DNA of 64,000 bases, from contig OX597832.1 in NCBI GenBank assembly GCA_951406725.2, forward strand, positions 70,804,001-70,868,000, given 5' to 3'. The translations under genes were made by a program, and so were the position numbers. The notes beneath the pieces were generated by a model. That model made no database searches, was not told where the DNA came from, and saw only the letters and a program-made list of their open reading frames with translations. This DNA comes from Octopus vulgaris. Taxonomy: Eukaryota. Position 1 is the stretch's first letter; each line of letters starts with the position of its first letter. Of the stretch, positions 29,147-37,386 are shown piece after piece.

Positions 29147-29405
29147 TTGCAACGTTGAAGGTGTTTATAAGCCATTTAAGAAACACACAAAAACCGTTAG
29201 ATTCACTTCAACATTTAAATTTAATTTGTCAAAATATTTTCGTCGCTTTGAGACCGCGACCTGTTAGCACGATATTTTTGTCAGTGAACAGGTCGCGGTC
29301 TCAAAGCGACGAAAATATTTTGGCAAATTAAATTTAAATGTTGAAGTGAATGTAACGGTTTTTGTGTGTTTCTTAAATGGCTTACAAACACCTTCCACGC
29401 TGCAA
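29147..29405. repeat. Inverted repeat (119-bp arms, 21-bp spacer) carrying a hammerhead-like motif
   Basis: Arms 29147-29265 and 29287-29405 with a few mismatches; (TA)n nearby on both sides. Confidence 0.9.
29277..29327 (+). ncRNA. Type-I hammerhead motif with G3-C8 core
   Basis: TTTGTCA-GTGAACA-G-GTCGC ggtctcaaa GCGAC-GAAA-ATAT-TT-TGGCAAA. Confidence 0.6.
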
Positions 29406-29469
29406 TATATATATACACACATATATATATATGTATGTATGTATGTATGTGTGTATATGTGTATGCATG

Positions 29470-29705
29470 TATGTGTGTGTGTGTGCGTGTCTGTGCTTGT
29501 GATTGTCCTCCACCACTGCTTGACAACGAATGTTGATTTGTTTACATCCCTGTCACCTAGTGGTTTGACAAAGGAAACAGATAGAATAAGTACAATGCTT
29601 ACAAAAATAAAAGTGGAGTTGATTCATTAAACTACAATTCTTCAAGGCATTGCCCCAGCATGGCCACAGACCAATGGCTGGAAAAAGCAGAAGAATAAAA
29701 GAATA
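29470..29705 (+). mobile_element. 3' half of the SINE family seen at 32849 and 47733
   Basis: tgtttacatccc...gatagaataagtac...gccccagcatggccacag tail. Confidence 0.65.
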
Positions 29706-29770
29706 CATTCTCTGCTTTGGTATTATGTTCAAGGCATGAGAAAGCTTGAGTTTACATGAGAAGGCCTAAC

Positions 29771-30034
29771 AGACCTGGTAGAAACAGCAGCCAAATCTCC
29801 CTCAAATCACACCTTACTGTCTTATGTATGTATATATATATGAGCCAATGAGGGGGACCTCTACATGGTAGCTAGACCTGGTAGATATAGCAGCCAAATT
29901 TCCCCCAAATCACACCTTACTGTCTTATCTGTGTATATATGTATGTATGAGCCTATGAGGGAGACCCCTACATGGCAGCTAGACATGGTAGAAATAGCAG
30001 CCAAATCTCCCACAAATCACACCTTACTGTCTTA
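29771..30034. repeat. Three tandem copies of a unit of about 105 bp
   Basis: agacctggtagaaacagcagccaaatctccctcaaatcacaccttactgtctta recurs at about 29771, 29874 and 29980. Confidence 0.8.
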
Positions 30035-31228
30035 TCTTTCTGCTACTTGGATATAGGTCTTATATTCGTCGTAAAAAACTTTACTGTCACACACTCACGC
30101 ACACGCACACACACACACACACACACACGCACCCTCACACACACACACACGCGCGCACACACACACACACTCACACACACGCACGTTAGCTTACAATTTT
30201 ATTATTTATATATTTGCGTGTCTATGTGTGGAAATAGGAAGTGGGAGGCAGAGTGAAAGAATCACTCACTACAGTAAGTGAATTACTTTCATTTTATTCG
30301 TTGCCCACTGTGTGTGTGCGTTTGCGTGTGGTGTAAACCAGACTAAGAAAAGCATTTGACACACACACCAGAATGTGAGATTTCTGTAATTTTTGCTTAA
30401 TTGGAGTTTAAATTTTAAAAACTGGACCTGGCATGACGCGATGCATTCTACTCTTAAAAATGCTAGGTAAATTGTAATTGAAGAAATCCTATATTGTAGA
30501 TTTCTATAACTCCCAAAGGGAGGCAGATAAAATCTGCCTTTTATAATAAGATATATACATATATATATATATATATAATAATAGAAATAATATAAGGGAA
30601 TAAATCCAAACTTACAGGGAAAAATTAGATTTAGGATTAAATCCAATAGTATAAACATATTATATTATATTATATTATCTCTAATATAATATATATATAT
30701 ATATATATATATATATATATATATATGACACCTCCTTCTAGAAGGAATATGGAAAAATATTTCATAACTAAGCTCTCCCCCAAATTGAATGGCTGAAAAT
30801 ATCTCTATAATAAGCTGTACCAAATTTGTTAAGTAAAGTGTATTAAACACACACACGCACACACAGTTCTACACATATGTTTTGGTTTTTGAAAATACAA
30901 TATTGAACAAAGGATATTCTAATATTTGAATGAAACCATTTCACTTTAATTTGTGGAACCAGTTGCTCATATATGATAAAACTTAATATTTATTTAACTG
31001 TCGATCAGTGAGATATTAGACTAAATCAACTGAAGATCAGAAAACAGACCCAGTAGTTGTCAGTTTGTATTCTGTCATTTGTAACTTCAACACAAGAAAG
31101 TCTCTTTTTCAAGTATGGACTTTATGAAATTTTACTCATCATACATTGAAGGACAAATCTTTCAATTTACAATTTAACATAGAGGAGCATTTAGTATATA
31201 TATATATACATACATACATATATATATG

Positions 31229-33914: not shown

Positions 33915-33940
33915 TATATATATATATATATATATATATA

Positions 33941-34058
33941 TTGGCCTGCTCGCTTAGCCAGCGGCATGGCGTCATTCGAAGGCTAAAACAATGCGAACGC
34001 ATTGTGACCAGCGATGTGTAACAACATCTGATGGCCTGGTCGGTCACGTGATCACGTG
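33941..34058 (+). mobile_element. SINE 3' fragment
   Basis: Reverse complement of about 31229-31330. Confidence 0.7.
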
Positions 34059-36131
34059 ATATATATATATATATATATATATATATATATATGTGTGTGT
34101 GTGTGTGTGTATATATATATATAGATAGATAGATAGATAGATAGATACATTTATGTATATATATACACACACATATATATATACACATATATATAATATA
34201 TATATATATATATAATATATATATATAAATATATGTATATATATGTATATATATGTATATATGCACATATATATATATATATATATATATATATAACTTG
34301 TGCTGTCTTTCGTGTTTCGTAAAGTAACATATTACAATTTCCACTTGCTGATTTTGATTGTGTGTGTGTGTGTGTGTGTGTGTGTATGTGTACGTATGTG
34401 TGTGTGTGTGTGTTTACGTGTGTGGTATTGAGAAAGGACAATGTCTTGGATTTCAATCCCATAAGAGGACGCGTTATCTTGTTGTTACACTGTTATTACT
34501 GCACCTGCGCCAAAGATGTAAGTGTGCGTCTGTATTTGCATCTTTCTATCTCTGTGTCTGTGCGCATGCATGATGTATGTGTGCCTGTCTATTGTACTTG
34601 CGAGTGTGTATATTTGTTTGTGTGCTTACGACGAGAAATTCGTGAGAGAGAGAAGAAGAAGACAGTGTGTGAATGTTCGCAGATATATAATAACATGCTA
34701 CACGACACGGTGTATAAGATACAATAATGTCAATGCAACCGACTTCCAGAATATTAAAAATACAAAACAATCCATTAAATTTTGGGCATCTTTCTTTTTT
34801 CTATTTATATTTCATTTATTTATTTTCTCTGCGTATATCTTAGGAAAATTTCACAGAGAAAGTGCGAAAATGTGACCAGCATTGTAGTAAAGGAGTCTGG
34901 GGATTTTGTGTCACGGAATCCTGTAATTGGATTACGACGATTGGATTACGAAGATCAGTTATAGATGTGACCATTATTTACATTGATGACGCCATCTGCC
35001 ATGCATGAACAATTATCGTTTGATGGATTCTATCTCTGGGGATAGGTGTCGACACCTCAATAGCTTTCACCAGTTTTCATAGTTATGCTAGGACGAAGCT
35101 AATGGCGTTCAAGCACATTCAAAGTTCGTCTTCGAAATGTTTTGAGGGGATTTAATTCACACTGATGGCTGGCTACAATTTTACATGGACGTTTTTCTGC
35201 TGCAGGAAATATTCAATGAGCTCTAGGTGTTTGCTTTCTTTTGTTATCCTACAAAAAGCATAATTTTAAACGGAGAGCAATCAAAAGCAGAACGAGTGGT
35301 TCCTAAAAGCTGGTCAGTGTGACACTGACTTGATAACTTTGGCCCGACACATTGGTCTAATCCAATCTTACCCCAAACCATAGCGTTTGAACCATACTAT
35401 AGGTTTTCCTCAGTCGCAAATGTATTATTAAAACACTTTCTTTGTGTTTAAAGCAGCGAGTAAGCAGAGTTGTTTAACTGTTGGATAGAATGTTTTGTGG
35501 TATTTATTCCGATTCTCTGAGCTCTAAGTTCAAATCTCGCCGAGGTTAACTATGTCTTTCATACTTTCGGTTCGATTTGAAAAAAAGTAAATCATGCCAA
35601 TCGAGAGCGATGGACTGATGGAAATGGTAGAGCACCGAATGAGATGGCTTGTCGTATCTGTCTTGTCTCTGAGTTGAAATCTTAACCCGTGACCGAGAAA
35701 CATTGTCACTCTGACAGAAATAGCCACCAACAGATAATTTCATCAATTTGAAACACAAACCGGAAAAAAATTTGGGGGGTTTTACCGAAAGGCCACCTCC
35801 ACCTAGGATTCGCACTGTTCTAACCGATCCCTCAACCCTTTTAACTCTGGTGTGATGCTAATGAAACCACGAAGCAACTTCATTGCAGCTTCTGTTATTT
35901 TATTCTTCCCCCTGTCCACTTAATTCCCGCTTCATGTTCGATGTCATTTAATTCGTCTGCTCCGAGGAGAGCGGTTTATTTCAAATTGATGTAATGCTTT
36001 CATTGATCGAGTAAATAGAGCTGCTTGAAACGGCCATATTCGAGTAAATAGAGCCGCTTGAAACGGCCGTATTTCACCGATATCTGGGCATTCTTGTTAC
36101 TTATTTGCTGTTTGTACATACATATATATAT

Positions 36132-36360
36132 ACGAGAAAAAAGCAACAAGAATGGATTAGTTTTTTAGTACAATTGTTTCATACAAAGACAGGCTTTATT
36201 AAAAGCTGCAAATATTGCAGCAAATACAAGTGTCCCGTACTCATCAGCTAAAGTACGGACACTTGTATTTGCTGCAATATTTGCAGCTTTTAATAAAGCC
36301 TGTCTTTGTATGAAACAATTGTACTAAAAAACTAATCCATTCTTGTTGCTTTTTTCTCGT
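36132..36360. repeat. Near-perfect palindrome (arms about 108 bp) centred on a hammerhead core
   Basis: acgagaaaaaagc...gtac tcatcagctaaa gtac...gcttttttctcgt. Confidence 0.92.
36164..36252 (-). ncRNA. Type-I hammerhead ribozyme with canonical CUGAUGA core
   Basis: TTTAG-CTGATGA-GTAC...long stem II...GTAT-GAAA-CAATTG-TA-CTAAA. Confidence 0.75.
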
Positions 36361-37386
36361 TTATAATCATCCCACATTATTGTATGGTTAATACCATATA
36401 GTTTTCTGGTGCATCTAAGTTAAGTACCGCATTCAAGTGAATTCATTAGAACTGACTTGAATCTTAATTGCTTTTACTATATATATATATATATATATAT
36501 ATATATATATATATGTGTATGTATGTATGTATGTATGTATGTGTGTGTGTGTATGTATGTATGTATGTATGTATTTATCTATCTATCTATATATATATAT
36601 ATAGATAGATAGATAGATACATACATACATACACACACACACATACATACATACATACACACACACATACATACATACATATATATATATACATATATAT
36701 ATATATATGTATGTATGTATGTATGTATGTATGTATGTATGTATGTGTGTGTATGTATGTATGTATGTATGTATGTATCTATCTATCTATATATATATAT
36801 ATATAGATAGATAGATAGATAGATACATACATACATACATACATACATACACACACACATACATACATACATACATACATGCACACACACACACATACAT
36901 ACATACATACATACATACATACATACATACATACATACATACATACATACATACATACATACATACATACATACATACATACATACATGCATACATGCGT
37001 ACATACAGTCCCCACACATTAGTGTGGTGTGTTTGCAACGAATAATTGTGCAAAGGAATAGTTAAAATTGTTTCAAAGCCGAAACGATGCAGATTTGAAA
37101 TAAGAAGAGAAAAACCGAAGGAACACGAAACCATTTAACACTCAATCTTTCCTTTCTCATGAAATCCAGCAAATACATTTGAAGCTTTGTTTTGACAGCT
37201 TTAGTTTTGCTTCCACTTTTTAATTTCAAATTTTCATTTCACAGGCTTTCAAACTGTCTTAGCAATATATATGCATGCATGTATATATATATATATATAT
37301 ATATATATATATATATATATATATATATATATATATATATATATATATATATATATATATATATATATATATATATATATATATAT

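Follow-up and report, generated by a model that had tools for sequence, protein, structure and literature searches.

Three short inverted repeats of the Octopus vulgaris genome, here called E1, E2 and E3, carry the marks of Penelope-like elements (PLEs): with a probability that we put at about 0.8, each is a head-to-head insertion consisting only of the pseudo-long terminal repeat (pLTR) and made by the reverse transcriptase (RT)–endonuclease (EN) of a different PLE family. Such an insertion is a known by-product of PLE integration and not a new kind of element. All three lie in a 64,000-nucleotide stretch (NCBI GenBank assembly GCA_951406725.2, contig OX597832.1, positions 70,804,001 to 70,868,000, forward strand; hereafter the window), which has a GC content of 35.5%, is rich in microsatellites and holds no N. 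The PLE origin is drawn from the hammerhead-bearing arms that point outward, from the (TA)n setting and from the run of E1 into the start of a PLE open reading frame (ORF). The further proposal that two primers were extended and joined is, for us, evenly balanced.

An earlier note on this DNA, made from the letters alone, had described three unrelated inverted repeats, each bounded by TA repeats and extended on one arm by a unique tail of about 60–120 bp, and the description is borne out in all these parts. Indeed, self-BLAST after masking recovers the arm pairs of E1, E2 and E3 with E-values of 5e-99, 2e-180 and 2e-99, respectively, and these elements, together with a longer one at 25–28 kb and a palindrome of low complexity near 16 kb, make up the five strongest short-range inverted repeats among the 11 listed (simple repeats masked). 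The arms of each pair align closely (table 1; the alignment of E2 takes in a few flanking TA bases), and the pairwise scores between E1, E2 and E3 are equalled by 11, 85 and 82 of 100 shuffles, so that the three are mutually unrelated. A TA run of at least four units lies no more than 6 nt from each of the six ends, against a background of 3.3% of the non-TA positions of the window; within these tracts, a target site duplication of fixed length is unreadable. In all three elements, the arms stand head to head and point their 3′ ends away from the centre (orientation being taken from the sense of the hammerheads and from the ORF of E1), and exactly one tail is present in each, or in four cases out of four when the 25–28 kb element is counted. 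Each arm of E1 and of E3 contains family sequence that is missing from its partner, and the centre of both elements belongs to the tail-less arm. This centre falls at the 5′ edge of the ribozyme in these two of the three elements: the left arm of E1 has its 5′ end inside the hammerhead core, and the right arm of E3 begins where the first core box ends. A reading of the longer centre of E2 as a diverged continuation of its arms was rejected on its fold z. No second copy of E1, E2 or E3 was found in the window by masked self-BLAST.

The link to a coding PLE is provided by E1. The elements had been described as lacking ORFs, which fails in this case: a PLE protein begins in the left arm and the tail of E1, where its first 31 codons lie, 28 of the 31 residues being identical, from Met1 onwards, to P0123 of Octopus sinensis (LOC115227545). 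On the right arm, the ATG lies at 29377, 56 nt past the predicted cut, and the arm stops at codon 10, with 10 of these 10 codons identical to P0123. When compared with 1.84 billion representatives, the 31-codon peptide returned two matches, namely an unrelated repeat protein and P0122, the latter aligned from Met1 (E 3.8e-4, 81% over 26 amino acids (aa)); P0122 used as a query retrieved in turn two of 342 candidates, both of them Octopus proteins. The family is carried to 382 aa by P0124 of O. vulgaris, in which LPPKF, LRWR, PTDKSG and PPLYGLRKDHK, the last of which we take to be RT1, follow the order of the PLE N-terminal motifs and then of the first RT motif. In a profile of 50 relatives of the 25–28 kb ORF, RWK and DKT align in order with LRWR and DKS of P0124 (conditional E 8.8e-5 and 0.088, respectively; the motif names xxKF, RWK and DKG are those of PMC8557442). 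An Atlas search with P0124 reached a score of 0.97, 29 of its 30 matches falling in DUF8422 clusters (16–41% of members in the three shown), and DUF8422 is also assigned to 11 of 120 relatives of the 25–28 kb ORF; the search with P0122 was uninformative (0.75). Pfam holds no family for P0124, phmmer gave no match between the E1 ORF family and Hydra-type proteins, and three motif words of this family were not found in the Craig supplement. The prokaryotic genome collection yielded no match to a 24-mer of E1, and none of 287 candidates for P0124 was confirmed there. On these sequence comparisons, E1 very probably represents the ribozyme and ORF start of a PLE and is, at that same strength, PLE-derived. 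A frameshifted PLE-like RT and thumb fragment at 11203–12420 (+), with a weak RVT_1 match (E 0.015) and of a type unlike the Hydra element, could share a clade with the E1 ORF.

The claim that each element contains a hammerhead motif is borne out with qualifications: a descriptor of our own detects a motif in all three, whereas Rfam detects none, the motif is complete on one arm only in E1 and E3, and helix II of E2 is weak. This relaxed descriptor was composed with the motifs already in view, and gives scores of 16 for E1, 16 for E3 and 12 for each arm of E2. At scores of at least 9, it has nine matches in the window (one each in E1 and E3, two in E2, two in the 25–28 kb element, two at further PLE-like ends and one in a simple repeat), and 40 shuffled 64 kb windows contain on average 1.25 matches at this threshold, 0.25 at scores of at least 12 and 0 at scores of at least 14. 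A stricter first descriptor had three matches in the window, of which two were E1 and E3, and missed E2. The right-arm motif of E2 has canonical core boxes, an unpaired base on both sides of its weak helix II and an odd-centred palindromic helix III. Unpaired bases beside helix II and a palindromic helix III are likewise described for published PLE hammerheads (PMC4209133; supplementary table of PMC8557442), and both traits are shared by the motifs of E1–E3. As for the core variant of E1, a double mutant equivalent to G3:C8 partly restores cleavage in the lizard element PAc (PMC11167929), and no clear prior report of a natural G3:C8 hammerhead core surfaced in our literature search.

Only 1.2 kb from E1, the architecture recurs in the 25–28 kb element, this time with an ORF. 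The earlier note had seen in the three short elements small versions of this structure, which it took for a Naiad; the common architecture holds, but the structure is not a Naiad. By its sequence motifs, it is a Hydra-clade PLE. Indeed, the RT (YKDD at residue 133) precedes the EN (GIY-YIG at residue 361), an order found in 72 of the 72 relatives with both motifs located, out of 84 relatives of at least 650 aa; the Hydra-clade motifs CxCX5C (linker), GIY-YIG, CxxC and CxH stand at residues 342, 361, 445 and 467, and no cysteines occur inside the GIY-YIG core. The 84 long relatives display RW[KR] in 77 cases and DK[TS] in all 84, the corresponding part being truncated in the ORF of the window. 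According to PMC8557442, members of the Hydra clade carry a C-terminal EN that lacks CCHH, a linker of the CxCX5C type, the motifs CxxC and CxH around the E and N residues, and also RWK and DKT; Naiads carry an N-terminal EN and a DKA motif and have no canonical hammerhead. A Naiad identity is thus ruled out by the RT placed before GIY-YIG, by the hammerhead-like motif on both arms and by DK[TS] in 84 of 84 relatives. The two arms are 98.9% identical, and here the loop lies on the tailed arm. A solo tail of the same family has a TA tract in common with E1; against the tail region at 25 kb it shows four mismatches and three gap columns in 83, several of them in the flanks, and it probably arose independently at a defined site. 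Directly upstream of it, at 28586–28981, is an insert of 395 bp whose ends, on the minus strand, are of Helitron type as judged by eye (5′ TC, 3′ CTAG, between A and T).

Coding evidence of the kind available for E1 was sought in the two other elements. A 71-codon frame of E2, considered as an ORF start, had no homologue (0 of 225 candidates) and a length equalled by 5.3% of shuffles, that is, near chance. No long sense frame occurs in E3, for which the protein comparison covered the 120 Hydra-type proteins only; the tail of the 25–28 kb element is likewise non-coding. From their architecture, we consider it probable that E2 and E3 are PLE-derived as well. The earlier suggestion of extreme 5′-truncated PLE insertions is accordingly established for E1 through its ORF start, and extends to E2 and E3 by inference.

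Table 1. Coordinates of E1, E2 and E3, of the longer element at 25–28 kb and of its solo tail (positions in the window; predicted features are based on sequence).
Feature	Position	Strand	Description
E1 arms	29147–29265 / 29287–29405	− (left, tailed) / + (right, tail-less)	alignment 114/119 matches, 95.8% identity
E1 tail	29083–29146	−	64 bp; extends the left arm at its 3′ end and carries the PLE frame on, approx. codons 10–31
E1 centre	29266–29286	+	21 nt; helix I 5′ strand and core start, oriented as the tail-less right arm
E1 PLE ORF start	29083–29175	−	first 31 codons, left arm and tail; ATG at 29175
E1 hammerhead-like motif, type I	29277–29327	+	core with swapped G3:C8 pair; one additional base (9.1); helix II of 5 bp; helix III palindromic; cleavage predicted after position 29320
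E2 arms	approx. 33345–33569 / 33690–33914	− (left, tailed) / + (right, tail-less)	222/235 aligned columns match, 94.5%
E2 tail	33243–33344	−	102 bp, on left arm
E2 centre	33570–33689		120 nt; not significantly self-complementary (fold z −0.82)
E2 hammerhead-like motifs	33473–33531 / 33728–33786	− (left arm) / + (right arm)	found by descriptor
E3 arms	approx. 36132–36241 / 36252–36360	− (left, tail-less) / + (right, tailed)	113 matches, 1 mismatch, 1 gap, 98.3%
E3 tail	36361–36478	+	118 bp, on right arm
E3 centre	36242–36251	−	10 nt; formed by 5′ part of hammerhead-like motif
E3 hammerhead-like motif, type I	36164–36252	−	core canonical; helix II long and branched (−15.9 kcal/mol); helix III palindromic
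Hydra-clade PLE, long case of the same architecture	25125–27902		tailed 5′-truncated (−) copy and tail-less 1-kb (+) copy, head to head at approx. 26904
25–28 kb ORF	25481–26962	−	RT then GIY-YIG
25–28 kb tail	25125–25186	−	62 bp
25–28 kb hammerhead-like motifs	25224–25286 / 27803–27865	− / +	U4C core change, both arms
Solo tail, 25–28 kb family	28981–29047	+	starts at arm/tail boundary; TA tract in common with E1

A plausible route to such loci can be drawn from the Poseidon element PAc, whose protein cuts AT-rich DNA on both strands in vitro and extends both, and whose reverse transcription begins inside the RNA at two adjacent sites approximately 110 nt into the ORF, the tail being the stretch between them (PMC11167929). 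Both ends of a cut TA tract would prime cDNA synthesis, the distal start site giving the tailed arm and the proximal one the tail-less arm; both cDNAs would end after approximately 110–330 nt and then be joined through microhomology of 1–3 nt. The start of the solo tail at the arm/tail boundary is consistent with a defined site. The template would be uncleaved RNA, since sequence upstream of the cut site has been copied, and PAc is also reported to use uncleaved RNA (PMC11167929). In E1 and E3, the stop at the 5′ edge of the ribozyme may result from priming at a 5′-proximal start site followed by run-off at the 5′ end of the RNA: as PLE transcripts begin in the upstream pLTR (PMC6765202), reverse transcription from such a site would run off near the ribozyme. 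Stalling at the ribozyme fold might alternatively account for the stop. The products would be hairpin loci dead on arrival rather than mobile units. Since either run-off or stalling could cluster the centres without mobility, a palindrome centre shared between copies, which the earlier note would have taken as the sign of a mobile unit, is not decisive by itself.

The presence in E1 and E3 of sequence on each arm that the other lacks rules out that a single inserted copy was merely duplicated or that a tailed cDNA simply snapped back; the candidates left are two primings and a hairpin whose trimming affected one arm. This second route is a possibility that we hold to be the less likely one: the elements would still be PLE-derived, but one strand would have primed itself into a hairpin (antisense self-priming, for instance, is described in PMC3846280), an endonuclease then trimming the tail from one arm. 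Short loops (21 nt in E1, 10 nt in E3), the microhomology of 1–3 nt at the junctions and the near identity of the E3 arms all suit such a fold-back, and the solo tail could be the cut-off piece. The single tail in four of four cases slightly favours an ordered process too, as independent primings with equal choice of site predict a single tail half the time. However, a snap-back predicts the loop on the tailed arm, whereas E1 and E3 have it on the tail-less arm and the 25–28 kb element on the tailed one; loops on either arm would call for an extra trimming step able to act on either arm. The extension of both target strands in vitro (PMC11167929) also speaks against fold-back.

It is improbable, in our estimation, that the three palindromes are non-autonomous units, transcribed and re-inserted whole by a PLE protein acting in trans in the manner of a hairpin short interspersed element (SINE) or a retrozyme. 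Whichever strand is transcribed, the RNA would indeed include a sense arm and, in it, the presumed region of RT start; pLTR sequences are enough for mobilization in trans (PMC3846280), and non-autonomous derivatives of PLEs exist (MRC1; retrozymes). Yet the 64 kb contain no second copy, each strand carries one sense ribozyme, so that no unit-length circle can be excised, and a hairpin of 110–225 bp would bury the RT start site. Moreover, the three families have three different centres, as independent events would, and no clear A/G excess appears among the arm differences, small as the counts are (five substitutions in E1, 11 in E2 and none in E3). The retrozyme-like units put forward earlier do not hold either: the head-to-tail tandem repeats that define retrozymes are absent, no direct repeat of E1–E3 appearing in the masked self-BLAST of the window.

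MITEs (miniature inverted-repeat transposable elements), or foldback DNA transposons that duplicate a TA target, would share the long inverted repeats, short spacers and TA flanks, but we give this reading very little credence, as one terminus carries a unique extension of 64–118 bp that makes the ends asymmetric, hammerhead motifs occur in all three elements, the same layout bears RT and GIY-YIG at 25–28 kb, and the PLE ORF start refutes a MITE outright in E1. Least probable of all is an assembly fold-back artefact or an inverted duplication of one inserted copy after its insertion, for although the tail-less, near-perfect low-complexity palindrome at approximately 15890–16500 indicates that other routes to palindromes exist here, divergence between the arms reaches 5%, and each arm of E1 and E3 has family sequence absent from the other.

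Several observations nevertheless weigh against the interpretation of E1–E3 as pLTR-only insertions made by PLE proteins. An ORF link is available for E1 only and lacking for E2 and E3, and tblastn of the 120 Hydra-type proteins against the three elements gave nothing significant (best E approx. 5). Within E1's own family, no RT catalytic or GIY-YIG domain was seen, P0124 stopping just past the first RT motif; hhalign gave P0124 a probability of only 6% against the profile of the relatives, and the gene model of P0123 is fused to a methyltransferase. Regarding the ribozymes, Rfam finds no hammerhead in E1 (16 matches), E2 (three) or E3 (33), and the motif of E2 is the weakest, its helix II reaching −4.1 kcal/mol on the left arm and having no fold on the right. 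The tails (64–118 bp) exceed the published 30–40 bp, each family has a single copy within the window, and the junctions, as far as their sequence goes, would fit the joining of two primed cDNAs and a fold-back hairpin trimmed on one arm alike. As an observation apart, the P0123 model combines approximately 220 residues of a PLE N-terminus with a methyltransferase fragment, which may be an annotation chimera or a real exon capture. Over the whole window, no hammerhead was present among the best 150 of 376 Rfam matches, and the best Rfam matches to the three elements were microRNA (miRNA) hairpins below threshold.

The window holds further PLE ends and repeats. Another PLE-like 3′ end is present in two approximately 90% identical copies that face each other 13 kb apart, with TA tracts, at 23330–24017 (+) and 37385–38288 (−); the latter contains a U3:A8 hammerhead variant at 37472–37516 (score 14), and an RT fragment at approximately 39480–39780 (+) adjoins its far end. 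A cluster of GIY-YIG-bearing PLE 3′ ends occupies 19235–22835 and comprises a 3′ end at 19317–20862 (+) with an A6U-type hammerhead at 20722–20759, a 43-bp inverted piece of a related PLE end at 19235–19277, and a PLE copy at approximately 20866–22340 (−) joined head to head with the end of a different family at approximately 22340–22835 (+). At 61737–61787 (+), approximately 90 bp before a TA tract, there is a hammerhead-like motif of type I whose core is canonical and whose helix III has 4 bp; it is probably the end of a further PLE with a low-complexity body. The palindrome at approximately 15890–16500 has arms 99% identical that are separated by a loop of 2 nt, and is flanked by TA at either end; it lacks a tail, gave no hammerhead match and could be a fold-back event or an assembly artefact. 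An older inverted repeat of 49 bp (42265–42313 / 42491–42539; 84%, 178-bp spacer) stands beside TA/GA tracts and has no hammerhead match. Two 3′ fragments resembling long interspersed elements (LINEs), at 32245–33215 and 46898–48140, are 71% identical, each being followed by a TA tract and by the same SINE-like repeat (97.6% identical), which may resemble octopus SINEs. Finally, inspection by eye points to degenerate coding remains of a Ty3/Gypsy-like RT and RNase H at approximately 5400–6800.

The short elements offer small, countable records of the step that forms the inverted repeats and tails of PLEs. Their features of note are the asymmetry in the ownership of the loop, the centres at the ribozyme edge and the G3:C8 core, the first two of which constrain the mechanism. 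Loci of this kind would be mislabelled by MITE finders and miRNA models; an annotation of O. vulgaris that used MiteFinderII and HiTE attributes 6.83% of the genome to PLEs (PMC13282606). In octopus, moreover, loci with the capacity to form long double-stranded RNA (dsRNA) make up an unusually large share, and the hyper-editing signal is the strongest (PMC5625713); the short elements may, as we infer, contribute to this long dsRNA. A bolder version, which we regard as doubtful, would see in them a defined product instead of random debris: reverse transcription primed at the 5′-proximal start site of an uncleaved PLE RNA would run off at a fixed 5′ end beside the ribozyme, giving a strong-stop-like cDNA, and two such cDNAs would be joined at the two ends of one cut. 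Some hairpins might be re-mobilized as units and, in an octopus genome rich in PLEs, the short elements could then be a major source of long dsRNA for the exceptional A-to-I hyper-editing; E1 would also count as a natural hammerhead with a G3:C8 core.

No dedicated paper on pLTR-only palindromes of octopus or on twin priming in PLEs was found, subscription papers falling outside the literature covered, but several known systems come close. Among PLEs, truncated copies in inverted orientation and tails on one side only are standard (PMC8557442; PMC8969392). As in E1–E3, the EN-bearing PLEs Penelope, Adineta Pen2a and Penelope-13_HM (PMC3846280; PMC8557442) display head-to-head inverted copies, a tail on one arm, a hammerhead near the 3′ end and (TA)n targets, and the ORF start lies within the pLTR and the tail both in Pen2a (first 12 and 22 aa; PMC3846280) and in E1 (10 and 31 aa). 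The short elements differ in that both copies are cut to approximately the pLTR, with no RT or EN coding left, and in their longer tails. For the 25–28 kb element, the closest known system is the Hydra clade, Hydra-1_Obim from Octopus bimaculoides included (PMC8557442 with its supplement), with which it shares the C-terminal GIY-YIG without CCHH, the CxCX5C linker, CxxC and CxH; by eye, it belongs to another family than Hydra-1_Obim, with a different ribozyme sequence, a diverged protein and the U4C change. An odd-centred palindromic helix III is common to Hydra-clade PLEs, the 25–28 kb element and E2. In Schistosoma mansoni, dual minimal hammerheads on opposite strands, 100–700 bp apart, are ascribed to truncated PLEs (PMC4209133), and the short elements resemble them in spacing, orientation and minimal type I architecture, the core variant being U3:A8 in Schistosoma and G3:C8 in E1; tails, junctions and targets are not covered in the text consulted. 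Animal non-LTR retrozymes, which form head-to-tail tandem repeats and circular RNA (PMC7229834; bioRxiv 10.64898/2026.07.22.740005), are likewise short, non-coding (E1 holding an ORF start), equipped with a type I hammerhead and probably PLE-derived, but are tandem repeats where the octopus elements are single head-to-head pairs. Another parallel is PAc Poseidon (PMC11167929), for which the text consulted does not take up inverted products but in which, as here, the hammerhead lies just before or over the ORF start, the tail lies inside the ORF, the target is AT-rich and both strands are extended.

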